DNA of 64,000 bases, taken from NCBI GenBank assembly GCA_028820695.1, contig JAPPIB010000055.1, positions 128,015-192,014 on the forward strand, written 5' to 3'. Source of the DNA: Acidiferrobacterales bacterium. Its GTDB lineage: Bacteria; Pseudomonadota; Gammaproteobacteria; Arenicellales; JAJDZL01. The notes beneath the pieces are model-generated. The model was not told where the DNA came from, made no database searches, and saw only the letters and a program-made list of their open reading frames with translations. Shown piece after piece: positions 19,676-36,306 of the stretch (within the stretch, counting starts at the first letter, position 1; every line of letters begins with the position of its first letter). A program made the translations under genes and the position numbers.

Positions 19676-21052
19676 TCACTGTGGGTCGGACAATTGGGCT
19701 GCCGCGATTGCGCGACGAGCCTTGTAAGACGGTACACGCATCTCAGCCCTGTACTTGGCGACAGTCCTGCGTGCGATATTTATTCCGCTGTCCCACATGC
19801 GTTGTGCGATCTGCTGGTCGCTCAATGGGGTCAGCTGATTTTCGGATTCAACAATCTGAAGGATTCTGTGTTTGATCGACATCGCCGATTCATCCTCGCC
19901 GACGTCACGTCTTATGCGAGCCGGAAAAAAGTGCTTCAACTCGAATGTGCCTCTTGGCGTCATTATATATTTGCCGGAACACGCCCGACTTACGGTCGAC
20001 TCATGCAGGTTGACCGCGTCCGAGATCTGCTGCAGTGTCAATGGTTTCATGGCATGCTCGCCATTGTCGAGAAAGGCGCTCTGGTGTCTGACAATCGCCT
20101 TGGCAACACGAAGAACCGTATCGTTTCGTCGACTGACGTTGTCAAGAAAATGCTGTGCTGTCACCAGGTTTCTCTCAAGGTATCTGCGATCTTTTGTTGG
20201 TATTCCATCGTCAATCATCGATCGATAGTGTTCGGAGATTTTCAGGTTTGGGATGAATTCCGAGTTGAGTAAGACAGCCCACTTGTCATCGATCTTGCGT
20301 GTGACCACATCAGGAATCACGGTCAACGCAGCCGCGCCGAAATTGATCGCCGGTGAAGGGTTCAGCGACTGTATCAGGTCAACCGCCGCCCGCACCGACG
20401 CCGCATCAACTTGCATCTGGGCGCCAATCTGTTCCAACTGTCTGTCGCCAAGCAACTCGAGGTGATCGCGCAGTATCGATTTTGCGTTCTGTCGCACAGA
20501 CCGGGGAGAATTGGCAAAGTCCAGCTGGATTGACAGGCACTCGGTCAGATTTCTCGCCGCTATACCCGGCGGGTCGAGTTGCTGTACCACCTCCAACACC
20601 CCCTCAACCTGTTGAGGCTCGACAGTCCATGGCAGGAATTCGACAATGTCCTGGATGGATTCTGTCAGGTATCCGCGTTCATCAATGCAATCAATGATTG
20701 TGTCGGCAATGGCGCGATCCGACTCTGAGAGCCCGGAGGCAAGTATCTGCTGGGCAAGGTGTTCGCGAATGGATATGGATTCCATCCGATTTGCCGCCAA
20801 CTCCAGCATCTCATCGGAGTCGAGCTCGGTGCGTTGCACGCCGTTCGATGGCAACTCTCCGTTCCGCCATGTCTCATCGCCTTCTTCCGGGACGGTGCGA
20901 TCGACTTCTTCCAAAAGTGGATTGGAGTCAACAACGTCCCTGATTTCTTCTGCCAGTTCGGAACTGGATAGTTGCAAGACCCGGACGGCAGTGCTGAATC
21001 GCGCGTTGAATGTCTGTTTTTGGCGTTGGCGTAATTCTACGGTCTGTCTCAT
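19676..21052 (-). CDS. rpoN: RNA polymerase sigma-54 factor
   Basis: 458 aa with a Gln-rich N-terminus (ELRQRQKQ), the HTH and the RpoN box ARRTVAKYR. Confidence 0.95.
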   Translation of the reverse strand: MRQTVELRQRQKQTFNARFSTAVRVLQLSSSELAEEIRDVVDSNPLLEEVDRTVPEEGDETWRNGELPSNGVQRTELDSDEMLELAANRMESISIREHLAQQILASGLSESDRAIADTIIDCIDERGYLTESIQDIVEFLPWTVEPQQVEGVLEVVQQLDPPGIAARNLTECLSIQLDFANSPRSVRQNAKSILRDHLELLGDRQLEQIGAQMQVDAASVRAAVDLIQSLNPSPAINFGAAALTVIPDVVTRKIDDKWAVLLNSEFIPNLKISEHYRSMIDDGIPTKDRRYLERNLVTAQHFLDNVSRRNDTVLRVAKAIVRHQSAFLDNGEHAMKPLTLQQISDAVNLHESTVSRACSGKYIMTPRGTFELKHFFPARIRRDVGEDESAMSIKHRILQIVESENQLTPLSDQQIAQRMWDSGINIARRTVAKYRAEMRVPSYKARRAIAAAQLSDPQ

Positions 21053-21419
21053 GATTAACTGATTATTTATTCTACTGCAACCGGTGAGAATTACGCAAAG
21101 GATTTCCTGATTGCCGCAAGTTATAAGTATGCTTTGTGTACAGCGATGTCATTGCAAGTCATTGATCATTAATACGCAATACATCACGGAACGATGATTG
21201 GTCCGGTCCCGCACAGGTTCAGCCCCCATGAGTTCATGCAACAGCACGACGACCAGGTCAAGTGCCTCGACGTGCTGTTCAAGTTGAAATTTCTGACCGG
21301 AATATCTGGAAATTTACTTACCGGTAGTGACATTTGGTACAAATTGCTCTGACGCTTCGACAAACATCAGGCCATCCATTTGCCGCTACGGGAATTGTCC
21401 TTGGCCGCGCACATGGATC

Positions 21420-21644
21420 CTAGATCCGTACGAACCGGTGCTGGTCGCATGCATGCGTTGGTTCCTGCAGGCGATAAAGCTCCACGAAGGTTGAAATTTC
21501 CACAAGGGACAGCACGAGCAGTTGGAGGCGCTGGTCGGCGACTGACATTTCCTCGCCCCACCTCTTGTCCAAGTAATTCAACACCTCGTCGATCTGCCGT
21601 GTCATGGCATCGTAAAACGATCGCATCTCATCTGCCGAACTCAT
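21420..21644 (-). CDS. hypothetical protein (74 aa)
   Basis: The translation looks helical and protein-like (EMRSFYDAMTRQIDEVLNYLDKRW...). The SD is poor and it may be a relic. No family assignment was possible. Confidence 0.3.
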   Translation of the reverse strand: MSSADEMRSFYDAMTRQIDEVLNYLDKRWGEEMSVADQRLQLLVLSLVEISTFVELYRLQEPTHACDQHRFVRI

Positions 21645-21764
21645 GAGCTTAAGTTCTACCCGCTCCTGTTCGGACTCCAGCGACTACCTGACATATGGCT
21701 CCAGATTCGCAAATTCCGGATCGGGTCCGATATCCCCGATGCATACGAAAGATGTACACTACCG

Positions 21765-23963
21765 CTAGTCAGGAGAGTCCAGAATGACGCACGAGGTATA
21801 CAAATACCGGTATAGTTTGAGTGCCAGCGACTTTTCTTGCTGTTCAATCCAGCGCAACTCCTGCGTGCCTAGCAGCCATACCTTGCAAGGCAATTCGGCA
21901 ACCACTGAGTGTGCACGGGTATCCGCATCAAGCACAGGAAGAATTACATCTCCAACTCCACATTGACGAACTCTGGTTCCGTTTTGGTCAAACACTGTAG
22001 CTCTACCCGATGCAAGCAGATGAATACCCTCACCTTCCACTGCTGCTATCTTTTCATCCTGTTTGTATTCACGGGTTTCAAGCCATGCTGACAATGATTC
22101 GACTACATCTTCAAAACTAGTCATTCTGTCCAGGTATCGCTCGAGAAGTTCTTCCGATTGGGTCAGCAGGAACTCCCGTTTCAGGTCTGCGGTTTCAGCA
22201 TCGGATTCCCAGTTTTCTATGACCAGGTCTTCGCATCGCTCAAGTGCTTGATCCTTGCTCGATTCGAACCACAACTTCTCGAATGCAGAAGTCGGGACAT
22301 CCCGCATCAACCCTTTATGCAGTGCATCCGACATTGCGCAAATTACGACTTGCACACCATTTTCCGTCGAATTCTGGATAAACTGACCCAAAATGCTGAC
22401 AGCTGAGTAATCGACACCGGAAACAAGCTTCATATCAAGTATCAGGCAGGTTGGAGGCGCAGAATTATTGAGCGGCTTTCTGAGTCGTGCAACCAAGGGT
22501 CTGGCACTGCCGAAGAATAAGTATCCCCGCAGGCTGTACCCGCATATCTGATCTCCTGACTGTAAAAGAATAGTGCGTTCGGGCGGCTGTCGAACCTTCT
22601 TGCTTCGATACGTTCGACCCGTAAACTCGTCTGCAATGGGATCGACGAGACTCAGCCTCAGCGCAAAAAAGACAAGAGTCGCCAGCAAGCCTGCCACAAT
22701 ACCCTCGACAAAGCCAAAGACATTGATTACGACTACAATCAGCAATACGATCGCGTAATCGGTCGCAGGCATTTTTTTGTAGCTTTGATACAGCCCTTCG
22801 TCGAGCAGTCCTATGGCAACGAAGAATAACAGTCCGCTCAACAATGATACAGGCAAGAATTCGAGCACACCGGATCCAAAAAACAATCCTCCGCCAATGA
22901 CCAGTGCGCAAATTACGCTTGTCAATCGTGTTGATGCCCCGAAAAGCCAGCTTCGGTAGGTTGGAGGGACGACCATGTAAGTGAAGGTCGCGCCGCTGAC
23001 TCCCGAAAATATACTTGAAATTCCAGCGGCGGAAAACTCCCTGTCCCAGTTCAGTTCCCGGCCGACCAACGTCTCAAGCCCTGCAAGACTCATCACTACA
23101 CAGACAAGAGCGACAAAAATAAGTACCAGCAAATTCGGTATCTGATCTATAACCGCGTTCCAGTCTACTTTCGCCAAGTCTGTCGGAGTGATCACTGGCC
23201 ATAATACGCCTTCAACACTGTTCAGCAGCAACTTGGAGTCTCGAGCATCTTCAATCGACAACCCAAGAGCGACAAAGACCAAATGGTATGCCCCGACCAA
23301 GACAACGACACTGAACGGAAGGATCAGCGCATTTTTCCATCGTCGCATTGCGAAGAATAGTACAAGGCCGTACATCGCTCCGGGTAACCAAAGAACCAAT
23401 GAAGACGGTTCAAACAGGTGCGTATAATTTTGCGGGTCAAGCTCAACGCCCGCGATGGATACCGTGGCGATGCCGACCGCAATTCCCATTCCACCGACAA
23501 AACCTGCCGCTACCGAAAACGGAATGAATCTGACCAGCATCGAAAGACGCAGTCGTCCAATTAGCAGACACATCGTGCCGGCGACGACCGAGCCCAGAGT
23601 CAATGCCACCACAGTGGTTACAAAAAGAACCTCGCCACTCGCATCAATCGTAAGTCCCACCTGCGCCATGACAATCACCAGCGCGGGTGAAATCCCTGCT
23701 ATCGCCCCGCGAAAACTACCGGTCAAAGCGACCGAAATGCAACCGACAAATACGCCGAACAGTACCAGTCCAACACCTTGCGGCAAATATGGCTGTAACG
23801 GTCCGGAAAAAATCGCACCGGCGAAAGCAATGTGAGCAACCAGTATGCTCAGTCCCGCGGTGGAACCTGCTGAAAGCGCAGGAATGATTTTCAACGACTG
23901 GATGGTTCCAGCCGATTCGGTGTTTACACTTTTTGGCATCAGTATGCTTTGATTCAGCAGCAA
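21765..23963 (-). CDS. SulP/SLC26-family anion transporter with C-terminal STAS and cyclic-nucleotide-binding domains
   Basis: 732 aa. About 10-12 TM helices are followed by a STAS-like segment (LILDMKLVSGVDYSAVSILGQF). A cNMP-binding-like beta-roll follows (GEGIHLLASGRATVF...GVGDVILP). Confidence 0.8.
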   Translation of the reverse strand: MLLNQSILMPKSVNTESAGTIQSLKIIPALSAGSTAGLSILVAHIAFAGAIFSGPLQPYLPQGVGLVLFGVFVGCISVALTGSFRGAIAGISPALVIVMAQVGLTIDASGEVLFVTTVVALTLGSVVAGTMCLLIGRLRLSMLVRFIPFSVAAGFVGGMGIAVGIATVSIAGVELDPQNYTHLFEPSSLVLWLPGAMYGLVLFFAMRRWKNALILPFSVVVLVGAYHLVFVALGLSIEDARDSKLLLNSVEGVLWPVITPTDLAKVDWNAVIDQIPNLLVLIFVALVCVVMSLAGLETLVGRELNWDREFSAAGISSIFSGVSGATFTYMVVPPTYRSWLFGASTRLTSVICALVIGGGLFFGSGVLEFLPVSLLSGLLFFVAIGLLDEGLYQSYKKMPATDYAIVLLIVVVINVFGFVEGIVAGLLATLVFFALRLSLVDPIADEFTGRTYRSKKVRQPPERTILLQSGDQICGYSLRGYLFFGSARPLVARLRKPLNNSAPPTCLILDMKLVSGVDYSAVSILGQFIQNSTENGVQVVICAMSDALHKGLMRDVPTSAFEKLWFESSKDQALERCEDLVIENWESDAETADLKREFLLTQSEELLERYLDRMTSFEDVVESLSAWLETREYKQDEKIAAVEGEGIHLLASGRATVFDQNGTRVRQCGVGDVILPVLDADTRAHSVVAELPCKVWLLGTQELRWIEQQEKSLALKLYRYLYTSCVILDSPD

Positions 23964-24039
23964 CCTGCCTTTTACGATAGGTGCATTACTCCGAGATCAA
24001 CAATGACGGGCGAATCGGTCGAGCGGCTCCATCAGCCTG

Positions 24040-27000
24040 TCAGCTCTCCAGAGACCAGAAATGCTGCCGCTGAAATGGGTAGCCTGGCAAAGATATACGA
24101 CGTCTCTCCTCGCTCGCAAAAAGCCCGCGAAACTCTGGCGTCAATCCCGACTCATAGGTTTTCGCGACTGCTTCAAGATAAGCGGTTTCATCGGTCGACG
24201 AGCGACTTAGAGTGGCCACTGTCACCGGGCTTTCACCGTCTGCGGCTTTCGGCCAGGTCGAGGCCACCTTCAATCCTGTCGCCGATTGCGGACCGACTTC
24301 AATAATCAAATCGATGTCCTGTTGCGCGAGAGTTTCCGAAATTCGTCCCGGTCGCACCTTGTCGTAAGTCTGTCGATACCAGTATGCCCCATCGAAAACC
24401 TCACCCGATCCCACCAGTTCGCCTGTAGCCTGGTTCACCATAGACAGTGATGGCGGGTTAGCCTTGACTCCATCGAACGCCGCTTCAAGTTCCTCCAGTG
24501 CTGTGGCATCCGGTGGGCATTCATTCTGTAATGCAGCCATCAGGGCTCCTCTGCGAGCAGCAATGCGCAAACCGTCCTCTAGAGACAGCACGCCCGCCGC
24601 TTGCGCCGCAGCAATCTGACCCGCACCTGTCCCAAACACGACGCTCGGCCGGATGCCGATGCTCGACCACAGCGCTGTGAGCGCGCATTGAAGCGAATAG
24701 ATGACCGGTTGCGCACAAGCCGGATCGTCGAGCTTCCCGAAATCGCCTAGCACCACATCCAGTAACGAAATTTGCAACTCACTTGACGCCATCGTGTGCA
24801 GATGGTTCAGCACTGCCTGAACTACCGGTTCACTCCCATAAAGATTTTCACCAATCCCGCGCCAGTGGCTGTCATCTGCCAGGTATGCGAAGGCCGGCTT
24901 GATTGTCGCAGGCGAACTATGGTTGGCATCGGATTCCGCAAGCGATGCCAGTCTGGTTCTCAGGGAATCGGCATCCCCAAATAGTATGCCAGCGCGGTGC
25001 ATCCAATGACTGCGTCCCACACCTGCCGTCCACGCCATATCAGTCAACTTGCAACCAAGGGCATCGCTGTTCAAATGGGCTGCGCTGCCATTGTCGAGCC
25101 ATGCAAGATAGCGCCCTGCAAGTTTGCGCAGCGCGTCTTCGGATTTGCCCGAAAGCGGTAATATCCGCAACGGTCTTGTCTGCAGATCGTCCACGGCAAG
25201 TTCTGTAACCGGTGCCGGCAGAGAAACGTCGATGCGATTCGCGGCACCTGCCGGGGAATTGATTCCGCTTTCTCCTTCCATCGGATACTGTGGCGCTTCA
25301 TAACCCTCGACCACAAGGTGAGCATTTGTTCCCGAGATCGCGAATGCACTCACTCCCGCTCGGGGTGGACGACTGCGGCTCGTCGGCCACTTGGTCATCT
25401 CCGATGTCACCTGCACCGGAAAATCACTCCATTGTATGTGGGGATTCGGGTCCCGGAAGTGCAGATGTTTCGGGATCACCCCGCGCTTCATCGCCAGCAG
25501 GACCTTGATCAATCCCGCGACGCCGGCCGCCGGCTCCAGATGACCGATGTTGGTCTTGACCGTGCCGAGCAGAAGCGGGCGGTCAGCCTCGCGTCCCCTG
25601 CCATACACAGCGGCAGCGGCGCGCACTTCAATCGGGTCGCCTAACTGCGATCCCGTCGCATGTGCCTCGAGGTAATCCACTTCGCAAGGAGGGATTCCAG
25701 CCTGTTGAAGCGCTTCCTCAATCACCTCTTCCTGCGCGGTTCCTTTCGGTACGGTCAGCGCGGCGCTCAACCCGTTCTGATTCACCGCTGAACCTCGCAC
25801 CAAACCCCAGATGCGATCGCCATCCGCCTCGGCATCGCTCAGCCTCTTCAGAATCACGACTCCGCAACCCTCGCCGCGAACGAAGCCGTCCGCGGCCGCA
25901 TCGAATGTCTTGCACCGCCCGCTCGATGACAACATCCCGTACTCCTTCATGAAATTCGAAACTCGAGTAGAAAGTACCGTTTGCACTCCGCCCGCCAGAG
26001 CCATGTCAATCTCACCCGCCCTGAGGCTTGCGGCAGCCTGATGCACCGCCACGAGCGATGACGAACAAGTCATGTCCAGCGGAACCGCCGGACCCATGAA
26101 CCCCAGTGTAAAAGCGACCCTTCCGATGGCCACGCTCGGTGCGGTGCCAAGAAAACTGTCATCCGCGCCTCTGCTTATGGCCAGGTCCCGGTACTCGCTG
26201 CCGCTCAAACCGATATACACGCCGGTGCGAGAGCCTGCGAGCGGCGAAGGGCATATGCCCGCGTCTTCGAGTGCCAGCCAACTCGTTTCCAGCAACAGTC
26301 TTTGGCGCGGATCCATGGTGCGTGCCTCGATAGGCCTGATGCCAAAAAAGTCCGCATCGAAAAGATTGATTCCCTCAACGAATCCTCCTCTTCGAGAGAC
26401 ACTGTCCTCGGCGGCGGGATCTCCGAAAACGCCGTGCCAGGGACCAGGGTCTTCGCGCCCATCCGTTATCGCGTCCATACCTGCCTCGAGCTGTTGCCAA
26501 AAAGCATCCAGATCAGGTGCGCCAGGGAATCGGCACGCCATGCCCACAATCGCGATTCCGTCCTTTTCCGCACCAATCTTTACTGGTTGCACCGAAACGG
26601 GCTCGTCCTGTGCTGGAGGAGCGAAAGCAGGTTCCACTTCGCCGAGCTCGCTGGCAAGATGTCTGGCAAGTGCCGCGATGTCCGGGTAATCGAAAACCAC
26701 CGTGTTCGATGCCGTGTAGGTGTCAGCGAAAGCTTTATTCAGCCGATTACGAAATTCCACGGACATGAGCGAGTCCATCCCTAGATCAAAGAAACCTACC
26801 GTAGGCTCTGGCAGCGATGACAATCGCAGTACGGCCTTTAATTCCTGCTGCAGGAACGAACCCAGCAGGTCTTCGCGCTCCGCCACCGGTACCTGCCTGA
26901 CACGAGAGATCAGATCAACCGCCAGGGCAGGTGAATCCGCACTCTCCTCAGGGTCCAAGAAGAGCAGATCCTCAAGCAGCGGCGGCCGTTCTTCGACGGC

Positions 27001-30000
27001 CTCTTGGAAAACGGTCCAATCCATGGCCATCACGACAGAATTTGTGATGTCCTGCCGTACAAGCCGTTCAAATGCCTTGATGCCCTGTTGCGGGGTGAAC
27101 CAGCGACCGCCTCGTGCGGCACGCTGTCGTTCAATCCGGTCGCGCTGTTCTGCTGCCTCACCGATTTCGGACCACGCTCCCCAGGCGATTGCCTGTCCCG
27201 GAAGTCCCAGTGCTCGGCGATATCCGGCAAGCTGATCCAGAAACGCGTTGGCCGCGGCGTGGTTCGCCTGACCCGGGTTGCCCATCACGCCGACCCGACT
27301 CGAAAACAGAATGAAAAAATCCAGATCAATATCGACAGTAGAGCGGTGCAGATGCCAAGCCCCTAGTATCTTCGGCCATAACACGATTTGGAATCGCTGC
27401 CAATTCTGGTTCGTCAGCGCACCGTCGGACAAAAGCCCTACACTATGGATCACGCCGCCCAGCGGGGGAAGTTCCTCTTTAATCCGCGCCAGCATTGAAT
27501 TTACCTGGCCGGCATCCGATACATCCGCGAGTTCCACCCTGACTCTGAACCCTCGTTCGCGTAGCGAATCGATTGCCCTATCAACCTCCGGGTCTGGAGA
27601 ACGTCGTCCATTCAGCACGATCGTTCCGGCTCCGCGTTCGGCGAGCCAATCGGCGACTGCACATCCGATGCCGCCAAGCCCTCCGGTGACAAGATACGTC
27701 CTGTCCTGCCGCAAGCGGCCGTTTGCCAGCGGCGGCACCGTCAGGACAATCTTGCCGGTATGGCGGGCCGCCCGCATGAATCGCAATGCCGTTCCGGCCT
27801 CCGCCAGCGGCCATCTGCTATGAACAATCGGTCGCACTTGTCCTGCCGCAAGCTGTTTCATGACGTCGCGAAGAACCCTGCCAACCCTGGCCGGTTCGGT
27901 CTTCTTCATAACATCGAGCTCGAGGATGGCATAGGCTACGTCAGGACGAACCTGTGCCATCTCATCCTCGCTGAGTATGTCCCGCCTTGCCAGCTCGACG
28001 AACCGTCCGCCATTCGCCAGGCAGGATAGGCTCGCGTCTATGAAGCCTTCCCCTGTCAGACTGTTTAGCACCACATCCACACCGACGCCGCCGGTGGCAT
28101 TGAGAATTTCTTCTCCAAATGTGGTTTGGCGACTGTCAAAAATGTTCTCCACCCCGAGCGAACGAAGGTATGACTGCTTGGGCGCGCTCGCTGTAGCAAA
28201 GACTTCCGCCCCCGCGGCCTGCGCCAGCTGGATCGCCGCCAGACCGACGCCGCCGGCACCCGCGTGAATCAACACCTTGTCTCCCTTGTTCAGCCCGGAA
28301 AACTCGTAAGACAGGGCGGCCGAGACGAATGCGCTTGGCACCGTGGCGAGATCCGATGCGGAAAATCCGGTCGGGGCCGGCGCGACCAGTTCCTCTCTCG
28401 TAATCATTTCAAACGCAAACGCGCCGAATCCCAGTCCGGTTACGTGATCGCCAATACGAACAGTTGACACTTCGGCACCGAGCTCAATTACACGGCCGTA
28501 CATCTCCCTGCCCAGATCACCCTCTTCGATAAAGCCCAGCGAGCGAAACACATCCCAAAAGTTAAGGCCGATCGCCTCAACCGCAATACATACCTCCTTC
28601 GGCTTCAGGTTGCGAGGTTGCAAGGGCTTGATGCACGGTCTTTCAAAAACGCCGCCCGGATCCGGTGCCAGCACCCACGCCGCATCATCCGGCAGGGAGA
28701 GTCGCTCGGCCCCGGCGTCTCCCCGGACCAGGCGTGCAACGTGACGACGTCCCGATCGGTATGCGATGTGGTTTTCCGAGTCGGGGTACAAAAGTTCATT
28801 GACCAAATCGGGTTCCGGCGATATCGGTGCAGGATCCAGGTCAATCATCCTCGGTTGCAGGTCCGCCGCTTCAAGTATCACGGCCTTGCCGAACCCCCAA
28901 AGAACGCTGCCGGCGAGCTCCCCGCCCTGTTCCCGTTCCAATACCTGCGCCCCGCTGGTGATAAACCACACACCTAGTTGCGGTTTCGCATCAACATCCA
29001 TCATTCCCTGGACCATCGCTAACGCACTGGCACCGATCCGTCTCACGTCCTCAGCCATTTCCTCGTGCGATGCATCCGACCCGCGGCCATTGCAGGCCAT
29101 CAGGTGTACGGCACCGTGAAAATCCATATCCGATGGAAGACTTCGCATGAGCGAACACCAGGAATCTCGATGTTCCATGTCCAGGGAGACGTCAACCACC
29201 CCGGCTCCGGATATCTCCCATGACTTGTCATTCGACGGTCCGTTCTCAACCAGCATCACTACCTGATTGCGAGCAGCCAGCCGGGTTGCCAGCTCGCTTG
29301 CCATCTCACAGCGATCCCCCGCGAGAATCCAGACCCCCGGCGCTTCCATTACTTCGGCTGCACTTTGTGCGACGATCACCCCCTTGTCCGGAAACTCGGT
29401 TGGGTCCGACTCATTCACTCCCAGAACTTCCACTTCACTGAAACCGACATCAGCGAGCGCGCGGCGCCATATTGACGGACTTGCCAGGGCATGGTGGGGA
29501 CGGTAGCTGTCAGCGAACCGCCACCATCCGTCCAATTGCCCGAAAGTGAGATCCATCCAACCCTGACCGCTGAGATTTTCGAGTGCAACCAGCTGACCCG
29601 ACGGCGCGAGAAGCAAAAGGCAATGTGTCAGTGTTTCTTGAAGATCGCGAGTTGCGTGCAAGACGTTCGACGCAATCAGCAAATCATAGGAGTTGACGGC
29701 AAAGCCCTGCACCAGCGGATCTTTCTCAATATCCAAAGGACGGTATTCGATGGCGCCTCCACCATCACCGAAGCGTGATTCTGCTTGTGCAAAGAATCCT
29801 GCCGAGATGTCCGTGTACATGTAATCGAACTGTCCATCCGGCAGTTCCGGCAAGATGGCAGCGGTCGCCGAACCTGTCCCCGCGCCGACTTCAATTATCC
29901 GAAGACGCTTTCCCTCGGGCCGGTCGGCCACGAGGGTGCGAATTGTCTCTTTCAATATCCGATTGGCTGCCCGCGCCACAGGTGCTTTCAGATACAGATC

Positions 30001-33000
30001 TCCAGGTGTCGGATCTCCGCTGCTGAACAGCAGCGTCAAAGGATCCTCTTTGGCGCGCAGTACATCAGCCAAGGCACCGCCACATCGTCTGAACAGGCCA
30101 ATTTCGTTGGTGCCGTGGCGATAACGCGAGACCATCGTGGAAACAAATTCCTCGATGTCCTCCGGCAATTCATCCGGCAACGGGTCATCCGGACCAACCC
30201 GGACGACGAATCCGTCGCCTGCCTGTTCCAATATTCCGGATTTTGCCAGCAGCTCAAGTATTCTGCGAAACAGGCGTTTATGGATAGCTTCAACCCCTAA
30301 GTGCTGGCGCAGATTCTCAGCGTTCAGCGTTGCGCCCGTTTCGCGCTTCCATCCGAGTTTCTCCAAGGTCGCAAGTGCATGACGACGCGACCACTGTTCC
30401 AAGTCGTTCAACAGAGCGCTTCTGTCGTCGCGCGAAACGCCTTCTTCAGCGAGATATTCGGCAAGCAGACCGGAACGGCGCGCCACGTCAGCCGGTGACG
30501 GAAGGAAGTCGGCAGGCACCATTCCCTGGGCCAGAACGACTTCTCGCCAGACGATCTCGTAAAGAAGATCATCGACTCCTTCGACTGCCGACAGCAACGC
30601 AGCACGCGTTGCGCGTTTTACGGTGTAGCCCTCCAATGCGCCGATCAGGTGCCCGGCCGAATCGTAGATGCGTATTTCACCACTCATTGCCTCCGCCGGA
30701 AGCTCGGCTTGCGTTTCAGCTTCCTGGACGGATTGCGTCATCTGTACATGGCACAAGACCGTTCGCGGCAGTCGCTCCCTGATCCACAGTCGCTTCCAGC
30801 CAAAAGGCATATAAGTCGTTTCATCTTCAACTCCACCCATAGTCCGCGCCGCAGCCACGACCTGGAAGCAGCCGTCCAGCACGAGCGGATGAACATCAAG
30901 TTTTTGCTGGTCGTAAACGCTGGGTAATGTCACCTCGCCCAGTGCTTCTCCCGGCCGGCACCATATGCCGCCGAGTGTTCGGAACGACGAGTCGAGATCA
31001 ATCCCTGTGGCGGAACGGGCGCGGTAGTAAGCCGCCGCATCCACCGGTTCGAAGCCGGATTTCAGACTGTCGGGATCGATTCGGTCTTCGTTTTGCACAT
31101 CCGGTGCACCACGCAAGACTCGGCACTCCACGTGATTCGTCCATCCCTCCTCGCTGCCTTTGCTGAATATCCTGACACGTCGGGACTTCGTTTCATCTTC
31201 GGAGTCAACCACGAGCTGAAGCCTGCGGACTGTCTCATCCACACTCTTCGCAGGATCTTCCGGCTGGAAGATCAGTGCATTCAGCAGTTGCATATCTTCA
31301 ACAACCACCGCGCGGTCCCCTTCGTCAAGGGCCGCAGATATCGACATGGCGCCGTAGAGCGCCCCTGGCGCAACGACCCGGCCGAACACTCGATGATCGC
31401 TCATCCACTGCGGGTCCGACGCAGAGATCTCCGTCTCGAATGTAACCTCCCCGCTAGCCGACTCGTAGCGATCGCCCAGCAGTGGATGCCCGGCACCGCG
31501 ACGCCGTTCCCGGGTCGAATCAAGCCAGTGGCGTTCGCGCTGGAACGGATAGTTGGGGATTGCGATTCGCCGGCGTTGCTCTCCAGCGTATAGCCCTTCA
31601 AAGTTTACCCGGAGCCCCGCCCGGTACGCTTGCGCAACCGCCTCGAAGAAACCATCGCTGCTACCGGACTGTTGTGCATCTTCCTTCGGTGGATGCATGC
31701 TTGCGAGCACTGTCGGCAACTGCGCATCGTCGCAATCCGGCCAAGCTGAGAGCGTCATCGCGCCCAACAACGGGCGCGGCCCTATTTCCACGATCACACC
31801 GACCCCGGCTTGCGCCAGCGATGCAGTTCCAGCAGCGAATGCCACCGGTTCGCGGGCATGTCGCCTCCAGTACGCTCCCTCAAGCAGCTGGCCGGTCTCA
31901 ACCGGCCGTCCGGTAAGATTGCTGACGATGGCGAGGGCGGCGGGTTTGATCGATATATCATCCAGCGACGTTTCCAGTGCATCCAATGCCGGGTCCAGCA
32001 AGGCACTGTGGAACGCCCGCTTCGTATTCAGCCGCCTTGTGCGAACACTTTCGACTTCGAAACGCTTGCATATGCTTTCAATATCCTCGACCGGGCCGCT
32101 CACCACCTGATGGCTGCCATTGTCTGCTGACACGCTGATGCCAGCGCGACTGGAAGATGAATTGAACTGTTCGACGATTGACGCAACCGTGTCGTGTGGA
32201 GCAAATACCGCGGCCATCGCACCGGGTTGGGTATTCGAAAGGATGGTGCCCCGCCTCTGTGCGAACCGCATGCCATCTTCCAAGCTGTAAACGCCCGCTG
32301 CCTGTGCGGCCGCCAGTTCTCCGACACTGTGTCCCACAACCACGTCGGGACGAATCCCGACACTGTTCCAAAGTGCTGTCAAAGCGCACTCGAGTGCGTA
32401 AAGCGCCGGCTGCTCCCACGCTGTGTCGTCCAGTCTGCCTTGTCCTGCGCCGTCCCTCGCGAACATTACGTCCAGCAAAGAAGCGCCTCCCTGTTCGCGA
32501 AATACTTGCTCACAGCGGTCGAACACTGCCCGCGCCACCGGTTCGCTTTCATAAAGCATCTGCCCCATGCCGGTCCATTGGCTGCCTTGCCCGGTATAGA
32601 CGAATGCCACCTTGATCTGAGAATGCTGTGGGATTTCGTCATCCTGTTTGACCAATAACCGAAGCTGCTCCCGCAGCGACCCGACGTCCTCGAACACAAT
32701 GCCCGTTCGGTGACTGAAATGACTTCGTCCGACACTGGCTGTCCATGCCATGTCGGACAGCAAAGCCCCTGCTGCAGTGTCTTGTGCTCCAATCGCCTTT
32801 GCCTGCGCATCGAGCCATGAGAGGTACCGTTCGGCGAGAGCTCGTGCACCTGCCGACTTGCCCGAAAGCGGAAGCAAGCGGCTGGCACGCTGCTTAAGCT
32901 CTTCATTCGGCATCGAAATATTCTTTGCTGCAGTCGACGAAGTTACCGCGATAGGTTTTGCAGATCCTGCCGTCAGATCTTGTTCGTAAGGTGCCTTGTC

Positions 33001-34395
33001 AGGTGCACAATATTCTTCCACGACAATATGGGCGTTCGTGCCGGAAATTCCGAAAGAATTCACTCCTGCAAGGCGCGGACGTCTGTCGTGTTGCGGCAGG
33101 TCCATCATCGAAGTGACGACCTGTACAGGCAGAAGATTCCAATCCAGACTCGAATTCGGATTGTTGAAGTGCAGGTGCTTGGGAATCGTACCGCGTTGCA
33201 TGACGAGCACTGCCTTGATCAGGCCTGCAATTCCGGCGGCCGACTCCAGGTGACCGACGTTGGTTTTCACAGAACCGACCAGAAGCGGTCGGTCGGCCAT
33301 GCGATTGTTTCCATAGACTGACGCTACCGCATTGATCTCGATTGGATCGCCCACCGACGTTCCGGTACCATGCGCCTCGAGATAATCGACTTGCGACGCG
33401 GTGATTCCTGCCTGCGAGAGCGCCTCTTCCATGACTTGCTCAAGCGCTGGTGTGTGCGGAACCGTGAGCCCGCTGCTGGCACCGCCGTGATTGACCGCTG
33501 AACCTCGGATGACGCCCCAAATTCGATCACCGTCGCGTTCCGCGTCGCTCAGCCGCTTGAGGACAACGGCACCGCAGCCTTCGCCTCGCACATAGCCGTT
33601 CGCGGAATCGTCGAACGCCTTGCACTGGCCATCCGGGGAAAGCATCATCGCATCTGCGCGCAGTTCGAATATGCGGCCACTCAAGATTGCCTGCACACCA
33701 CCTGCGATCGCCAGATCCGCCTTCCCCTGCTGAAGGTCTGAAACCGCATCGTGGACCGAAACCAGGGACGATGCGCAAGCGGCGTCGACCGCTTTCGAAG
33801 GCCCCCTGAGTCCCAGTACGAAAGAGACCCGACCACTGGTTCCGTTCAGGTTGGTGCCGCTGAGGGCATAAAGGCAGGCGGCAGCCTCGGCAGGCTTGTT
33901 CGATCCCACCACCAGCATCCTGTATTCGTCGTTGCTGATCCCTGTATATACGCCGGTGCGGCTGCCCATCAGCTGATCAGGGTCTATTCCTGCGTCCTCA
34001 AGAGCGTGCCAGCTGGTCTCGAGCATCATTCGCTGTTGCGGGTCGAGAAAGTCGGCCTCGACAGGCGAAATTCGAAAGAAACCAGCGTCAAAACCATCGA
34101 TCCCATCAACGAAGGCACAGTAACGGCAGGCGCTGTCCAATTCCTCAAGATCCGGAAATAGTTCATCCACGCGCTGGTTTCCGCTACCCGGGACGATTTC
34201 GCAGACCGAGTTTCCGCCAGATTCAAGAAGTTCCCAGAATTCAGAAATACTCGACGCACCTGGAAACCGGCACGCCATTCCTATCACTGCGACTGGTTGG
34301 ACAGGTTGTAAATTTCTTGCGTGATCCTTCACAGAATAGCTGGAAAATTTGAAGCTATTGTTTATGTGTACCCATGTTGACAATTCAGGTATCAA
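24040..34395 (-). CDS. type I polyketide synthase, 3451 aa: KS-AT-DH-cMT-(psiKR)-ER-KR-ACP-KS-degenerate AT
   Basis: KS1 has DAACASS (C207), EAHGTG and NVGHLE. AT1 has GQGSQW, GHSVG (S690) and RAFHS, which indicates malonyl specificity. DH has HRVFGRVVAP and LDGCFQ. The MT domain has IEVGAGTG. ER has LIHAGAGGVG. KR has TGGLGGIG, LWPK, FSS and GQANHAAAN. ACP has LGMDSL (S2542). KS2 has MTCSSS (C2777), EAHATG and NIGHLE. The AT-like tail has GTGAG in place of GHSxG. A TTG start is assumed, so the exact start is uncertain. Confidence 0.95.
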   Translation of the reverse strand: MIPELSTWVHINNSFKFSSYSVKDHARNLQPVQPVAVIGMACRFPGASSISEFWELLESGGNSVCEIVPGSGNQRVDELFPDLEELDSACRYCAFVDGIDGFDAGFFRISPVEADFLDPQQRMMLETSWHALEDAGIDPDQLMGSRTGVYTGISNDEYRMLVVGSNKPAEAAACLYALSGTNLNGTSGRVSFVLGLRGPSKAVDAACASSLVSVHDAVSDLQQGKADLAIAGGVQAILSGRIFELRADAMMLSPDGQCKAFDDSANGYVRGEGCGAVVLKRLSDAERDGDRIWGVIRGSAVNHGGASSGLTVPHTPALEQVMEEALSQAGITASQVDYLEAHGTGTSVGDPIEINAVASVYGNNRMADRPLLVGSVKTNVGHLESAAGIAGLIKAVLVMQRGTIPKHLHFNNPNSSLDWNLLPVQVVTSMMDLPQHDRRPRLAGVNSFGISGTNAHIVVEEYCAPDKAPYEQDLTAGSAKPIAVTSSTAAKNISMPNEELKQRASRLLPLSGKSAGARALAERYLSWLDAQAKAIGAQDTAAGALLSDMAWTASVGRSHFSHRTGIVFEDVGSLREQLRLLVKQDDEIPQHSQIKVAFVYTGQGSQWTGMGQMLYESEPVARAVFDRCEQVFREQGGASLLDVMFARDGAGQGRLDDTAWEQPALYALECALTALWNSVGIRPDVVVGHSVGELAAAQAAGVYSLEDGMRFAQRRGTILSNTQPGAMAAVFAPHDTVASIVEQFNSSSSRAGISVSADNGSHQVVSGPVEDIESICKRFEVESVRTRRLNTKRAFHSALLDPALDALETSLDDISIKPAALAIVSNLTGRPVETGQLLEGAYWRRHAREPVAFAAGTASLAQAGVGVIVEIGPRPLLGAMTLSAWPDCDDAQLPTVLASMHPPKEDAQQSGSSDGFFEAVAQAYRAGLRVNFEGLYAGEQRRRIAIPNYPFQRERHWLDSTRERRRGAGHPLLGDRYESASGEVTFETEISASDPQWMSDHRVFGRVVAPGALYGAMSISAALDEGDRAVVVEDMQLLNALIFQPEDPAKSVDETVRRLQLVVDSEDETKSRRVRIFSKGSEEGWTNHVECRVLRGAPDVQNEDRIDPDSLKSGFEPVDAAAYYRARSATGIDLDSSFRTLGGIWCRPGEALGEVTLPSVYDQQKLDVHPLVLDGCFQVVAAARTMGGVEDETTYMPFGWKRLWIRERLPRTVLCHVQMTQSVQEAETQAELPAEAMSGEIRIYDSAGHLIGALEGYTVKRATRAALLSAVEGVDDLLYEIVWREVVLAQGMVPADFLPSPADVARRSGLLAEYLAEEGVSRDDRSALLNDLEQWSRRHALATLEKLGWKRETGATLNAENLRQHLGVEAIHKRLFRRILELLAKSGILEQAGDGFVVRVGPDDPLPDELPEDIEEFVSTMVSRYRHGTNEIGLFRRCGGALADVLRAKEDPLTLLFSSGDPTPGDLYLKAPVARAANRILKETIRTLVADRPEGKRLRIIEVGAGTGSATAAILPELPDGQFDYMYTDISAGFFAQAESRFGDGGGAIEYRPLDIEKDPLVQGFAVNSYDLLIASNVLHATRDLQETLTHCLLLLAPSGQLVALENLSGQGWMDLTFGQLDGWWRFADSYRPHHALASPSIWRRALADVGFSEVEVLGVNESDPTEFPDKGVIVAQSAAEVMEAPGVWILAGDRCEMASELATRLAARNQVVMLVENGPSNDKSWEISGAGVVDVSLDMEHRDSWCSLMRSLPSDMDFHGAVHLMACNGRGSDASHEEMAEDVRRIGASALAMVQGMMDVDAKPQLGVWFITSGAQVLEREQGGELAGSVLWGFGKAVILEAADLQPRMIDLDPAPISPEPDLVNELLYPDSENHIAYRSGRRHVARLVRGDAGAERLSLPDDAAWVLAPDPGGVFERPCIKPLQPRNLKPKEVCIAVEAIGLNFWDVFRSLGFIEEGDLGREMYGRVIELGAEVSTVRIGDHVTGLGFGAFAFEMITREELVAPAPTGFSASDLATVPSAFVSAALSYEFSGLNKGDKVLIHAGAGGVGLAAIQLAQAAGAEVFATASAPKQSYLRSLGVENIFDSRQTTFGEEILNATGGVGVDVVLNSLTGEGFIDASLSCLANGGRFVELARRDILSEDEMAQVRPDVAYAILELDVMKKTEPARVGRVLRDVMKQLAAGQVRPIVHSRWPLAEAGTALRFMRAARHTGKIVLTVPPLANGRLRQDRTYLVTGGLGGIGCAVADWLAERGAGTIVLNGRRSPDPEVDRAIDSLRERGFRVRVELADVSDAGQVNSMLARIKEELPPLGGVIHSVGLLSDGALTNQNWQRFQIVLWPKILGAWHLHRSTVDIDLDFFILFSSRVGVMGNPGQANHAAANAFLDQLAGYRRALGLPGQAIAWGAWSEIGEAAEQRDRIERQRAARGGRWFTPQQGIKAFERLVRQDITNSVVMAMDWTVFQEAVEERPPLLEDLLFLDPEESADSPALAVDLISRVRQVPVAEREDLLGSFLQQELKAVLRLSSLPEPTVGFFDLGMDSLMSVEFRNRLNKAFADTYTASNTVVFDYPDIAALARHLASELGEVEPAFAPPAQDEPVSVQPVKIGAEKDGIAIVGMACRFPGAPDLDAFWQQLEAGMDAITDGREDPGPWHGVFGDPAAEDSVSRRGGFVEGINLFDADFFGIRPIEARTMDPRQRLLLETSWLALEDAGICPSPLAGSRTGVYIGLSGSEYRDLAISRGADDSFLGTAPSVAIGRVAFTLGFMGPAVPLDMTCSSSLVAVHQAAASLRAGEIDMALAGGVQTVLSTRVSNFMKEYGMLSSSGRCKTFDAAADGFVRGEGCGVVILKRLSDAEADGDRIWGLVRGSAVNQNGLSAALTVPKGTAQEEVIEEALQQAGIPPCEVDYLEAHATGSQLGDPIEVRAAAAVYGRGREADRPLLLGTVKTNIGHLEPAAGVAGLIKVLLAMKRGVIPKHLHFRDPNPHIQWSDFPVQVTSEMTKWPTSRSRPPRAGVSAFAISGTNAHLVVEGYEAPQYPMEGESGINSPAGAANRIDVSLPAPVTELAVDDLQTRPLRILPLSGKSEDALRKLAGRYLAWLDNGSAAHLNSDALGCKLTDMAWTAGVGRSHWMHRAGILFGDADSLRTRLASLAESDANHSSPATIKPAFAYLADDSHWRGIGENLYGSEPVVQAVLNHLHTMASSELQISLLDVVLGDFGKLDDPACAQPVIYSLQCALTALWSSIGIRPSVVFGTGAGQIAAAQAAGVLSLEDGLRIAARRGALMAALQNECPPDATALEELEAAFDGVKANPPSLSMVNQATGELVGSGEVFDGAYWYRQTYDKVRPGRISETLAQQDIDLIIEVGPQSATGLKVASTWPKAADGESPVTVATLSRSSTDETAYLEAVAKTYESGLTPEFRGLFASEERRRISLPGYPFQRQHFWSLES

Positions 34396-34432
34396 TCCAA
34401 TGAATTATAAGGCTTGGCCAAAGCGGGATTGT

Positions 34433-34447
34433 TTCGAATCATTCGAA
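34433..34447. promoter_or_regulatory. perfect 15-bp palindrome TTCGAAT-N-ATTCGAA about 40 nt upstream of the PKS start (candidate operator)
   Basis: ttcgaatcattcgaa reads identically on both strands except for the central base. It lies in the 238-nt hydrolase-PKS spacer. Confidence 0.25.
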
Positions 34448-34633
34448 GCTGCGATATTGCCTTACGGTTCTGTACGTGCACACGCTGGCGTTTGCCGAAC
34501 GGACAGTGCGGGGCCCCACCGGTGCGATGGTGCGACTTGAAACAGTTTGTCGGACTAGTCGGCGGGAAGTTTTCGAGTACAGCCTGTCAACCGGAATCAC
34601 ACTCGCCGGATACCTGCCCACCATTCAATCCGG

Positions 34634-35569: not shown

Positions 35570-35574
35570 GGAAA

Positions 35575-36306
35575 TTACTCATCCGCGATGCGAGCGATAG
35601 CTGGAACCAACTCGTGTGCAATTGCGGCAGCGAAATCAGTGTTGCCCATATCTTCAAGCTTCCAGAAAATATCCGGAAGGTGCGGGAACCTGAATGTGGC
35701 GGACCGGGCGCCATGTCGCATGCTTGGCGGGACTTGGAATCTGGACGGATCAAGAGAAAATCCAGTGCCAAGGGCTTTGATCAGTGCCTCCTTCAGTGTC
35801 CACAGGGTATAGAAAAAGTGAGGCTTTTCTCGAACCTGTCTGGAAGACAACTCGGTTTGCTCTTGCTCACCAAACACTATCTTGCCTATTCCATCAAAGT
35901 CGTTGCTGTCGATGCGCTCCTCGACATCCACTCCAACTCGTCCTTCGGAAGCAAACGCGATTAACCCATGCATGCCACTGTGACTTAGGTTGAAACTCGT
36001 TTGAACCGCCACACCGTCGATCAATGCGAACGGCTTCCCGTATTCGAAATTGTCAAAAGAAAGCAGTCTGTTGTCACAGTCGAGCCTATGACAAAGATTC
36101 ATGCGCAACGCTGCCCGACAAAGCGCAAACTCGCGCTGAGGACGAGAAAACTTATACCGGTGCCAGCGCTCCCGCTCAGACTTGTCAAGCTGCGAGAAGG
36201 CACGCTCCTCACGCGATTTATTCGGGGTCAGATCAACATGGACAACGGACACATCTGCAACTTCACAAAAACATCTGAACCACAAATCCTCATCTTCGTT
36301 AAGCAT
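35575..36306 (-). CDS. Sfp-type 4'-phosphopantetheinyl transferase
   Basis: 243 aa with GVDVEE and FYTLWTLKEALIKALG, the W/FxxKEA motif. Confidence 0.85.
   Translation of the reverse strand: MLNEDEDLWFRCFCEVADVSVVHVDLTPNKSREERAFSQLDKSERERWHRYKFSRPQREFALCRAALRMNLCHRLDCDNRLLSFDNFEYGKPFALIDGVAVQTSFNLSHSGMHGLIAFASEGRVGVDVEERIDSNDFDGIGKIVFGEQEQTELSSRQVREKPHFFYTLWTLKEALIKALGTGFSLDPSRFQVPPSMRHGARSATFRFPHLPDIFWKLEDMGNTDFAAAIAHELVPAIARIADE

Follow-up and report, generated by a model that had tools for sequence, protein, structure and literature searches.

A conserved terminal ketosynthase with a relic acyltransferase in a putative Sup-type polyketide synthase from a sponge metagenome

Introduction

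Surveys of polyketide synthases (PKSs) in sponge microbiomes are dominated by genes of the Sup ("sponge symbiont ubiquitous") type. The Sup PKS, that is, SupA with the accessory genes SupB-E, was described by Fieseler et al. 2007 (Appl Environ Microbiol 73:2144) and Hochmuth et al. 2010. Sup genes are abundant and highly diverse in sponges of high microbial abundance, and their KSs form a clade of their own in KS phylogenies. SupA presumably carries an additional ketosynthase-acyltransferase (KS-AT) unit after its acyl carrier protein (ACP) and clusters with genes for an ACP, a phosphopantetheinyl transferase (PPTase) and a hydrolase. To our knowledge, neither the product nor the mechanism of a Sup-type enzyme has ever been shown by experiment, and the connection with mid-chain-branched fatty acids is one of correlation. 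Sup enzymes were characterized as "unusual, small monomodular" PKSs (PMC4245539), Sup clusters are present in MAGs of several phyla, Proteobacteria among them (PMC9426513), and SupE has been described as a permease (PMC3908369); a statement on the domain order of SupA was not found in our literature search.

KSs that rely on a trans acyltransferase, and behind which a catalytically inactive vestige of the KS-AT architecture remains, are represented by PksJ (4na1) and by the structures designated "AT-less PKS" (4qyr, 4tkt). Vestigial ATs also occur in some hybrid assembly lines and bear the same likeness to the didomain described here. Terminal condensing enzymes that extend a FAS-like product onto another carrier, or into another pathway, are exemplified by enzymes of the mtFabH type, which bridge type I and type II systems, and by the Steely fusions of FAS and type III PKS. 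A described counterpart of an inactive terminal AT is found in CalA3 of the calcimycin PKS, whose AT has undergone Ser-to-Gly, His-to-Leu and Arg-to-Leu exchanges, while its KS still has the Cys-His-His triad and catalyzes amidation as well as hydrolysis (PMC10006239).

Here, we describe a PKS gene which fits the Sup type and which ends in a KS (KS2) fused to a relic AT (AT2, hereafter AT°), and compare it with these systems.

Results

Domain organization and end of the PKS gene

The window (the whole stretch of 64,000 nucleotides that was analyzed) lies on a scaffold of a sponge metagenome, as stated in its ENA record. The PKS encoded there has the domain order KS1-AT1-DH-cMT-ER-KR-ACP1-KS2-AT°, as deduced from motifs and from matches to the Pfam families KS, AT, DH, Methyltransf_12, ER, KR, and PP-binding (Table 1). 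The public gene call in the ENA record begins at GTG 34332, which is 21 codons downstream of TTG 34395, and yields a protein of 3430 aa; residue numbers given here are counted from TTG 34395. In AT1, GQGSQW begins at residue 602, GHSVG at 688, and EIGP at 870, with RAFHS at 793-797; judged by its sequence, AT1 is the sole active AT of the cassette. The first module, with its order KS-AT-DH-(MT)-ER-KR-ACP, resembles mycocerosic acid synthase (MAS; 5bp1, 9d2y), which was a close match in both sequence and structure. MAS, however, stops after its ACP, has no second KS, and introduces branches via methylmalonyl-CoA rather than by a C-methyltransferase.

Table 1. Features of the PKS cassette in the window.
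Feature	Coordinates	Strand	Remarks
Discrete ACP, 73 aa	36425..36646	-	AcpP-like; motif GVNSMD
Sfp/HetI-type PPTase	35575..36306	-	Pfam and profile match
α/β hydrolase, 311 aa	34634..35569	-	nucleophile elbow FHSVS
Type I PKS ORF	24040..34395	-	3451 codons from TTG 34395; Pfam and motif reading
KS1	33031..34299	-	aa 33-455; DAACASS, EAHGTG, NVGHLE
AT1	31678..32604	-	aa 598-906; intact; GQGSQW, GHSVG, R-R-G, RAFHS
Internal ACP1	26656..26853	-	aa 2515-2580; Ser2542 in GMDSL
KS2	25291..26562	-	aa 2612-3035; Cys2777, His2912, His2952
KS-AT linker domain	24901..25290	-	aa 3036-3165; Pfam KAsynt_C_assoc, CurL-like_PKS_C, RhiE-like linker
Relic AT (AT°)	24271..24900	-	aa 3166-3375; large subdomain retained
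Deletion scar in AT°	24499..24528	-	~aa 3290-3299; alignment to AT1 and model
Post-AT linker	24043..24270	-	aa 3376-3451; carries YPFQRQHFW; stop codon 24040-24042
SulP-STAS permease	21765..23963	-	weak cNMP-binding match

A preliminary description of this DNA had claimed that no carrier domain follows AT2, and had considered a frameshift concealing a continuation into an ACP or a thioesterase (TE). The first claim was borne out, as Pfam PP-binding was matched only by ACP1 and by the 73-aa ORF (Table 1). The PKS stops 4-8 aa past YPFQRQHFW, and only 76 nt separate its stop codon from the next ORF, that of the SulP transporter, which leaves no room for a hidden carrier domain. Moreover, the YPFQRxxW motif is followed by 0-21 aa in 96 of the 120 top homologues and in 56 unique related loci, none of which has an ACP or TE fused to this end. 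A frameshift, a truncation, or a hidden ACP could thus be ruled out, given that the SulP ORF lacks a PP-binding match and that so many proteins and loci stop alike.

A relic AT devoid of its small subdomain

BLASTP aligned KS2-AT2 to KS1-AT1 with 51% identity over 693 aa and then skipped AT1 residues ~724-802, which correspond to the small subdomain and RAFHS. At this scar, ~80 aa of AT1 (the small, ferredoxin-like subdomain including the HAFH histidine) stand opposite ~8 aa in AT°, and a FabD profile was matched by AT° at positions 11-124 of 290 only. Of the catalytic motifs, GQGSQW is replaced by ADDSHW (aa 3173-3178) and GHSxG by GTGAG (aa 3255-3259, nt 24619-24633). The EVGP motif, which begins at aa 3366, is 111 aa away from GTGAG, compared with 182 aa between the nucleophile and EIGP in AT1, which leaves ~71 aa missing. 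Both the exchanged motifs and the shortened spacing had been reported in the preliminary description and were reproduced exactly; they also proved to be characteristic of the family. Among 97 aligned sequences, the nucleophile position is occupied by Gly in 87, the small subdomain with the HAFH histidine is absent from every one, and the distance from the nucleophile to EIGP is 68-126 aa versus 180 aa in AT1. One homologue still contains GHSTG and GEGSQW, yet it has the same deletion. The notion that Ser and His are merely shifted is therefore incompatible with the alignment. The earlier statement that AT2 has lost every catalytic signature was correct for GQGSQW, the GHSxG serine, and the HAFH histidine, but not for the arginine equivalent to R117 of FabD: R3282 in ARRGA, which aligns with the Arg of QRRG in AT1, is present, as it is in 51 of the 97 homologues. 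Nevertheless, with Gly at the nucleophile position and the His-bearing small subdomain deleted, AT2 cannot, as far as its sequence can tell, catalyze acyl transfer.

KS2 is conserved and the didomain fold is predicted to be intact

The catalytic triad that had been recognized in KS2 was confirmed motif by motif: MTCSSS at aa 2775-2780 (C2777, codon 26065-26067), EAHATG at aa 2910-2915 (H2912), and NIGHLE at aa 2949-2954 (H2952); the Lys of the KTNIGH motif is present as well (VKTNIGH). Across the aligned homologues, the Cys is found in 97/97 and the two His in 94/97 and 95/97. The dN/dS of KS2 (0.14-0.20) is the same as that of KS1; the values are 0.29-0.35 for AT° versus 0.23 for AT1, and 0.28-0.40 for the linkers. 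Thus, KS2 looks catalytically competent. Its sequence is compatible with condensation, hand-off, or release, and the retained triad is no proof of condensation because CalA3 keeps Cys-His-His without condensing (PMC10006239).

The AlphaFold2 model of KS2-AT° (pLDDT 85.9, pTM 0.89) superposed on KS-AT didomains, a comparison that had been proposed as a check. These didomains were also its best matches in the PDB, with CurL (4mz0, TMq 0.84) at the top and CalA3 (7wvz, TMq 0.83) among them. The deletion scar was modeled as one short helix plus a loop, and the fold consisting of KS, linker domain (LD), and AT is predicted to be kept. In contrast, KSs of the trans-AT type matched query residues ~10-440 only, whereas KS2-AT° retains the AT large subdomain, with AT/FabD homology up to residue ~690; also unlike these KSs, the window PKS possesses an active AT in cis, that of module 1, and the carrier is free-standing. 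As AT° is under purifying selection and the KS-LD-AT fold is predicted, the role as a scaffold that had been suggested for the relic AT fits, and it is the best reading of this domain.

These data also bear on the notion that KS2-AT° has no function, being either what decay has left of a former second module or a product of misassembly or truncation. AT° is undoubtedly inactive, it evolves faster than AT1 (dN/dS 0.35 vs 0.23), and no ACP is present in cis, all of which would be expected of a remnant. However, the identical terminus in the 96 proteins and 56 loci comes from many phyla, the architecture is common to 31 unique full-length ORFs, the fold was predicted with confidence, the Cys of KS2 is invariant, and KS2 is as constrained as KS1, with the dN/dS of AT° also well below 1. 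Pseudogene decay was ruled out by the dN/dS values together with the conservation of the triad, and the notion of a remnant or artefact, already contradicted by these observations, is very improbable.

A discrete ACP and a hydrolase accompany the didomain

In the window, the genes are arranged in the order ACP-PPTase-hydrolase-PKS-permease, compared with PKS-ACP-PPTase-hydrolase in most related loci; tRNA and Rfam scans revealed nothing near the cassette. A survey of how often KS-AT termini with a relic AT occur together with a discrete ACP, as had been proposed earlier, was conducted on those loci whose downstream sequence extended over at least 3.5 kb (n = 33, regarded as informative). Of these, 29 contain the discrete ACP, 27 the α/β hydrolase, and 26 the two together, and in four, for example L029, a discrete ACP was not found within 10 kb. 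In 13 loci the discrete ACP gene directly follows KS2-AT° on the same strand, and the same holds for two Rhodothermales genomes. The discrete ACPs of related loci are orthologous and keep the Ser, and that of the window could be aligned with AcpP over its entire length, a better match than the one with ACP1. In one Bryobacterales symbiont, KS2-AT° constitutes a separate ORF of 844 aa. Locus L092, the nearest relative found without KS2, has neither the discrete ACP nor the hydrolase, but a release domain where KS2-AT° would be located. The joint absence of KS2, discrete ACP, and hydrolase from this locus suggests that the three travel together. The discrete ACP is thus the probable carrier partner of KS2, as inferred from co-occurrence; gene adjacency as such is compatible with the discrete ACP serving KS2, priming KS1, or carrying the final product.

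In a different assignment, KS2 would be the second condensing domain of a single, iterative FAS-like machine and would draw on ACP1 and AT1 for those cycles, later ones or methyl-branched ones, that KS1 refuses; the discrete ACP would then act elsewhere, for instance in supplying the starter or passing on the product. Labor is split among KSs in a comparable manner between FabB and FabF and among the several KS domains of PUFA synthases. ACP1 precedes KS2 in the polypeptide by ~35 aa, there is a single active AT, the triad of KS2 is conserved and strongly constrained, and a few loci are without a detectable discrete ACP nearby, all of which is consistent with this assignment. Conversely, the presence of a discrete ACP in most informative loci, often right after KS2-AT°, the existence of KS2-AT° as a separate protein without ACP1, and the lack of both discrete ACP and hydrolase in the KS2-less L092 argue against it, which makes it unlikely, in our opinion.

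The hydrolase of the window is 59-70% identical to its homologues (119 among the matches listed) and is probably the off-loading enzyme. Its AlphaFold model (pLDDT 83) matched generic α/β hydrolases, including the TE of curacin and the acyl-CoA hydrolase MpaH; none of the structural matches was diagnostic of function. Off-loading could also fall to KS2 itself if, in the manner of CalA3, it did not condense but transferred the finished chain from ACP1 via Cys2777 to water, to an acceptor with an amine or hydroxyl group, or to the discrete ACP's thiol as the nucleophile; AT° would then lend structural support. CalA3 sets the precedent of an ACP-less terminal module with a dead AT that plays a structural part and a Cys-His-His KS that catalyzes amidation and hydrolysis (PMC10006239). 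It shares Gly at the nucleophile position with AT°, it is a structural match to the model, and KS2-AT° is positioned where L092 has its release domain. The two differ in several respects, however. The AT of CalA3 has both subdomains and lost the Arg, whereas AT° lost the small subdomain and kept the Arg; CalA3 further comprises an inactive DH, an inactive KR, and a docking domain at its N-terminus, whereas no DH-KR follows AT°; and CalA3 releases its product by forming a C-N bond with 3-hydroxyanthranilate, without a discrete ACP or a hydrolase as partners. In addition, an obvious means of release is already at hand in the conserved hydrolase, each of the two His, which serve decarboxylation of malonyl groups, is retained in 94-95 of 97 sequences, and the cassette has no conserved gene for an acceptor substrate. 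A releasing or transferring KS2 therefore appears doubtful.

As a core gene of the cluster, the SulP permease was rejected: it adjoins the PKS in only four surveyed loci and is, for this reason, treated as a facultative, occasional neighbor.

A PKS family of sponge microbiomes that fits the Sup type

Database searches returned thousands of homologues of the PKS. Of 73 related metagenome loci, 72 had accession prefixes that stand for sponge projects, and the seawater prefix LXNH did not occur; LXNJ denotes Petrosia, LXNI Sarcotragus, and MKWU Aplysina (PMC5099237). A scan of a genome collection with peptides of the window mostly retrieved unrelated multimodular PKSs, with two Rhodothermales MAGs as the only true family members. 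The family is thus very common and almost confined to sponge microbiomes.

The window PKS resembles Sup PKSs in its sponge-metagenome origin and in being a small, single-module, FAS-like enzyme with a C-methyltransferase. As with Sup genes, the family is abundant, diverse, and distributed over many symbiont phyla (PMC4245539; PMC9426513), and KS1 contains the DPQQ and HGTGT sites targeted by the primers for sup amplicons (PMC4245539). The accessory genes of the cassette encode an ACP, a PPTase, a hydrolase, and a SulP permease; among the Sup accessory proteins, SupE is described as a "permease" (PMC3908369). No protein named Sup was among the matches in the homologue searches with the PKS, the hydrolase, and the SulP permease. 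A difference from Sup PKSs was not found, the likeness being one of provenance, cluster content, and the presumed SupA architecture, rather than of reference sequence. On this basis, the window PKS fits the Sup type.

Discussion

Taken together, the locus is best explained as encoding a Sup-type, FAS-like PKS of a proteobacterial sponge symbiont, in which KS2-AT° would constitute, together with the discrete ACP, a second module of minimal size, AT° being its structural shell; we assign this reading a probability of about one half. KS2-AT° would have arisen from an ancient internal duplication of KS1-AT1. As the KS2 of the window is 60-76% identical to orthologous KS2s, compared with 51% between KS2-AT2 and its own KS1-AT1, the duplication would be older than the spread of the family. 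The AT copy may have lost the small subdomain with the catalytic His first and the Ser later, and would since have been kept as a shell of three parts (linker domain, AT large subdomain, post-AT linker) that holds KS2 in the architecture of a KS-AT didomain. We infer that the reduced, possibly methyl-branched chain produced by module 1 would pass from ACP1 to Cys2777, while the discrete ACP would be malonylated in trans, either by AT1 or by the FabD of the cell. KS2 would then carry out one more decarboxylative condensation, and the resulting β-ketoacyl chain on the discrete ACP would be released by the conserved α/β hydrolase or processed by enzymes of type II FAS.

An extension of this reading, which we consider speculative, is that KS2-AT° and the AcpP-like discrete ACP form a dedicated adaptor from a type I PKS module to type II FAS, and that AT° represents a living intermediate between cis-AT and AT-less modules. 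Module 1 would introduce a methyl branch into a chain of short or medium length, and KS2 would extend this branched primer onto a carrier usable by FabG, FabZ, FabI, and FabF, so that the branch would come to lie mid-chain. The mtFabH and Steely systems employ a KAS III and a type III PKS, respectively, whereas KS2 is a type I KS; the likeness to them is thus a functional analogy only, and what ties the discrete ACP to type II enzymes is only its AcpP-like sequence.

The gene itself fits as an additional member of the already known Sup-type kind of PKS. What the comparison adds is that the terminal didomain of KS and dead AT is universal in this family, is under selection, and is nearly always accompanied by a free ACP and a hydrolase. 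A gene ending in KS-AT° should consequently not be annotated as truncated. The PKS terminus, the free ACP, and the hydrolase (four genes) define a functional unit for reconstitution. The relic AT provides a natural case of an AT large subdomain that is apparently retained purely as a scaffold, which bears on the evolution of AT-less modules and on PKS engineering. If the adaptor function proved true, it would account for the mid-chain-branched fatty acids of sponges.

Domain organization and origin of the KS2-AT° terminus

By Pfam, the PKS consists of KS, AT, DH, methyltransferase, ER, KR and PP-binding domains, followed by a second KS and a second Acyl_transf_1 stretch (KS2-AT°, AT° denoting the relic AT, or AT2). 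All motifs and positions previously assigned to KS2, AT2 and AT1 were reproduced, including the spacing between the nucleophile motif and E(I/V)GP (111 aa in AT2 versus 182 aa in AT1). Because the public gene call on the contig starts at a GTG 21 codons further in (3430 aa), the residue numbers used here are shifted by 21 relative to that annotation.

Positions of the PKS, its motifs and neighboring genes in the window
Feature	Nucleotides	Strand	Residues and remarks
PKS ORF	24040-34395	-	3451 codons counted from TTG
KS2, MTCSSS	26065-26067 (C2777 codon)	-	aa 2775-2780
KS2, His motifs			H2912 in EAHATG; H2952 in NIGHLE
AT2, ADDSHW			aa 3173-3178
AT2, GTGAG	24619-24633	-	aa 3255-3259
AT2, EVGP			starts at aa 3366
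AT1 motifs			starts: GQGSQW 602, GHSVG 688, RAFHS 793, EIGP 870
Discrete ACP	36425-36646	-	73 aa
PPTase	35575-36306	-	Sfp/HetI type
α/β hydrolase	34634-35569	-	311 aa
SulP-STAS permease	21765-23963
lptB	37113-37862
rpoN	19676-21052

The preliminary description held that AT2 had lost every catalytic signature. This is correct for the nucleophile Ser, the catalytic His and the oxyanion-hole Gln, but not for the carboxylate-binding Arg (R3282, in ARRGA), which is retained in the alignment with AT1. No carrier domain follows AT2, as stated before: the protein ends 8 residues past YPFQRQHFW, and the next ORF, 76 nt beyond the stop, encodes a SulP-STAS permease without a carrier domain (Pfam).

KS2-AT2 and KS1-AT1 of the same PKS share 51% identity over 693 residues, in an alignment that skips AT1 residues ∼724-802 and then resumes up to the post-AT linker. 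The skipped stretch comprises the ferredoxin-like small subdomain and the RAFHS motif; the FabD profile matched AT2 only at positions 11-124 of 290, which bears out the proposed deletion of the small subdomain with its HAFH motif. Alignments with sequences of KS-AT crystal structures (CurL, MAS, GfsA) end at query residue ∼690-729. The identity and the single skipped block indicate that KS2-AT° is an internal duplicate of KS1-AT1, whose AT has lost ∼71 residues including the catalytic His, as well as its nucleophile Ser and its oxyanion-hole Gln. With orthologous KS2 domains, the window's KS2 shares 60-76% identity, whereas the didomain shares only 51% with its own KS1-AT1; the duplication is therefore old. 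One homologue of KS2-AT° (P0070) retains intact GHSTG and GEGSQW motifs in its second AT yet carries the same deletion, which is why loss of the small subdomain was probably the first inactivating event, preceding loss of the Ser, with motif drift afterwards.

Predicted fold and selection

A structural model, proposed earlier as a check, was computed for KS2-AT° with AlphaFold2 from 41 sequences (mean pLDDT 85.9, pTM 0.89). In Foldseek, it matched KS-AT didomains, first CurL (TMq 0.84), then Lsd14, DEBS, GfsA, MAS, Pks13 and CalA3; the small subdomain is absent from AT°, one short helix and a loop taking its place. Since the model superposes on these didomains, the linker domain, the AT large subdomain and the post-AT linker are predicted to hold KS2 in the usual didomain frame. 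Pairwise dN/dS (Nei-Gojobori, disjoint pairs of loci) was 0.14-0.20 for KS2 and 0.14 for KS1. For AT° it was 0.29-0.35, compared with 0.23 for the active AT1 and 0.28-0.40 for the KS-AT linkers; thus, purifying selection on AT° is weaker than on a working AT but evident, and comparable to that on a structural linker.

Conservation of the terminus across the family

A search with KS2-AT° returned 7953 proteins at E ≤ 1e-10, the best 120 of which (37-67% identity, mostly 50-63%) were examined. Their hosts are MAGs of Gammaproteobacteria, Bryobacterales, Gemmatimonadota, Latescibacteria, Nitrospira, Nitrospinae, Chloroflexi, Rhodospirillales and others, and 96 of the 120 end ∼0-15 residues from a YPFQRRRHW motif. 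Across 97 aligned sequences, the KS2 Cys is always kept (97/97), as are nearly always the two His (94/97 and 95/97), and the AT° nucleophile position is occupied by Gly in 87 and by Ser in only one; from this position to E(I/V)GP, all 97 span 68-126 aa, versus 180 aa in AT1. When public metagenomes were scanned with the relic-AT alignment, 73 loci were obtained, which together with four further loci gave 56 unique loci with a relic-AT terminal ORF. In all 56, the tail past the motif is 1-21 aa long, and none has an ACP or TE after it; the whole architecture is common to 31 unique full-length ORFs. A frameshift hiding a continuation into an ACP or TE, raised in the preliminary description as a challenge to its view, is therefore ruled out. 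KS2 followed by a dead AT is a standing, conserved property of the whole PKS family and not peculiar to the gene in the window. That KS2-AT° is a functionless remnant is contradicted by these data and highly improbable.

A few related loci deviate. In a Bryobacterales symbiont of the metagenome that also yielded the window (L027; likewise L028), the ACP1-KS2 linker contains an in-frame TAG (L027, 9929-10003) at a sense codon of the window, so that KS2-AT° becomes an ORF of its own (844 aa, GTG start 24 nt ahead of the KS) and the remainder of the PKS a 2561-aa protein, with the hydrolase and an ACP encoded close by. A natural split, a read-through site and a shared assembly error are all conceivable origins. 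On a 1.58-Mb contig (L029), gene calling gave two overlapping ORFs for the PKS, which meet within the ACP1 region (9749-10183), a pattern that looks like an assembly frameshift rather than a real split; discrete ACP and hydrolase were not found within 10 kb of this PKS. A more distant relative (L092, Ga0114966, not a sponge prefix; 42-50% identity) encodes KS-AT-DH-MT-ER-KR-ACP (59-11034) followed by a different C-terminal domain of ∼300 aa with a weak acyltransferase/condensation-like match. Its surroundings include an IS66 transposase, a PPTase and a type II thioesterase; the locus contains no second KS, discrete ACP or sup-type hydrolase.

Partner genes and genomic setting

Ahead of the PKS, on the same strand, lie the genes for a discrete ACP, a PPTase and a hydrolase. 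The co-occurrence survey suggested earlier covered 33 informative loci (3.5 kb or more of sequence past the end of the PKS): along with the relic terminus, 29 of them encode a discrete ACP, 27 the hydrolase, 26 both of these, and 13 a PPTase. The ACP gene directly follows KS2-AT° on the same strand in 13/33, and likewise in two Rhodothermales genomes. The commonest orders were PKS-ACP-PPTase-hydrolase, PKS-ACP-hydrolase, and PKS followed by convergent hydrolase-(PPTase)-ACP.

The discrete ACPs fall into a single orthologous group, and their Ser is conserved. In the window and in L030-L095, this phosphopantetheine Ser is embedded in G-V-(S/N/P)-S-(M/V/L)-D, not the usual D-S-L. The window's ACP aligned end-to-end with E. 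coli AcpP at 28% identity, above its match to ACP1. Of the 2405 homologues of the hydrolase, the 119 listed (not counting the window protein itself) are 57-70% identical to it; across 38 aligned members, neither the Ser nor the His position varies. The hydrolase is predicted to adopt a generic α/β hydrolase fold, with the curacin thioesterase and an acyl-CoA hydrolase among the structural neighbors.

The five-gene cassette (ACP, PPTase, hydrolase, PKS, SulP) is situated between lptB and rpoN (region 19676-38909) and so interrupts the lptC-lptA-lptB-rpoN-ptsN-rapZ series, whose genes normally adjoin one another in Proteobacteria. The GC content of the PKS gene (58-59%, versus 50-52% in accessory genes and flanks) suggests that it was acquired by horizontal transfer. 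Among related loci, only four (L044, L047, L071, L075) have a SulP gene next to the PKS; the C-terminus of the window's SulP gave a weak, sub-threshold cyclic-nucleotide-binding match. A few kb past mlaFE (40860-46440) are 3-hydroxyacyl-CoA dehydrogenase, thiolase and AMP-binding acyl-CoA synthetase-like genes.

Proposed function

As far as sequence analysis reaches, the interpretation in the preliminary description is supported. KS2-AT° and the discrete ACP may constitute a final-condensation module, a mechanism to which we assign a probability of about 0.5. The acyl chain assembled by module 1 on ACP1, reduced and possibly methyl-branched, would be transferred to Cys2777 in KS2. The extender unit for one final unreduced condensation would come from the discrete ACP after priming by the cassette PPTase and malonylation by AT1 or FabD, and the product on this ACP would be released by the hydrolase or passed to type II enzymes. 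The role of AT° would be architectural only. That the two KS domains instead share ACP1 and divide the labor is rather unlikely. Equally doubtful, KS2 might be a release or transfer catalyst, for which CalA3 is a direct precedent: in this ACP-less module with a Ser-to-Gly dead AT, the KS carries out no condensation despite its Cys-His-His triad (PMC10006239). KS2-AT° resembles it in lacking an ACP, in the Gly at the AT nucleophile and in the retained Cys-His-His.

Family identity and sponge provenance

The window corresponds to scaffold_83 of ENA assembly ERZ23495530 (ROBB21-1_SAMN13943214), a label whose name points to a coral-reef demosponge study (PMC8163846). The prefixes found among related metagenome loci are LXNJ (Petrosia ficiformis), LXNI (Sarcotragus foetidus), MKWU (Aplysina aerophoba) and those of JGI sets; LXNH, the prefix of that project's seawater assembly, did not occur. 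The SupA described in 2007 reportedly carries an additional KS-AT past the ACP, in a cluster with ACP, PPTase and hydrolase. Sup ("sponge symbiont ubiquitous") PKSs are small, FAS-like and methyltransferase-containing, abundant and diverse in high-microbial-abundance sponges, and found in many phyla (PMC4245539, PMC3908369, PMC9426513); SupE is listed as a permease (PMC3908369). In these descriptive traits, the window's PKS family fits Sup. No Sup-named protein was among the matches listed for the KS2-AT°, hydrolase and SulP searches.

The family is known and very common, though biochemically uncharacterized. KS1 (33361-33378) contains both DPQQ and HGTGT, the degenerate-primer sites of sponge KS-amplicon surveys (PMC4245539, methods), whereas KS2 (25651-25668 and ∼26290) has DPRQR and HATGS in their place. 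Amplicon surveys of "sup" diversity would accordingly have missed KS2 and sampled only KS1.
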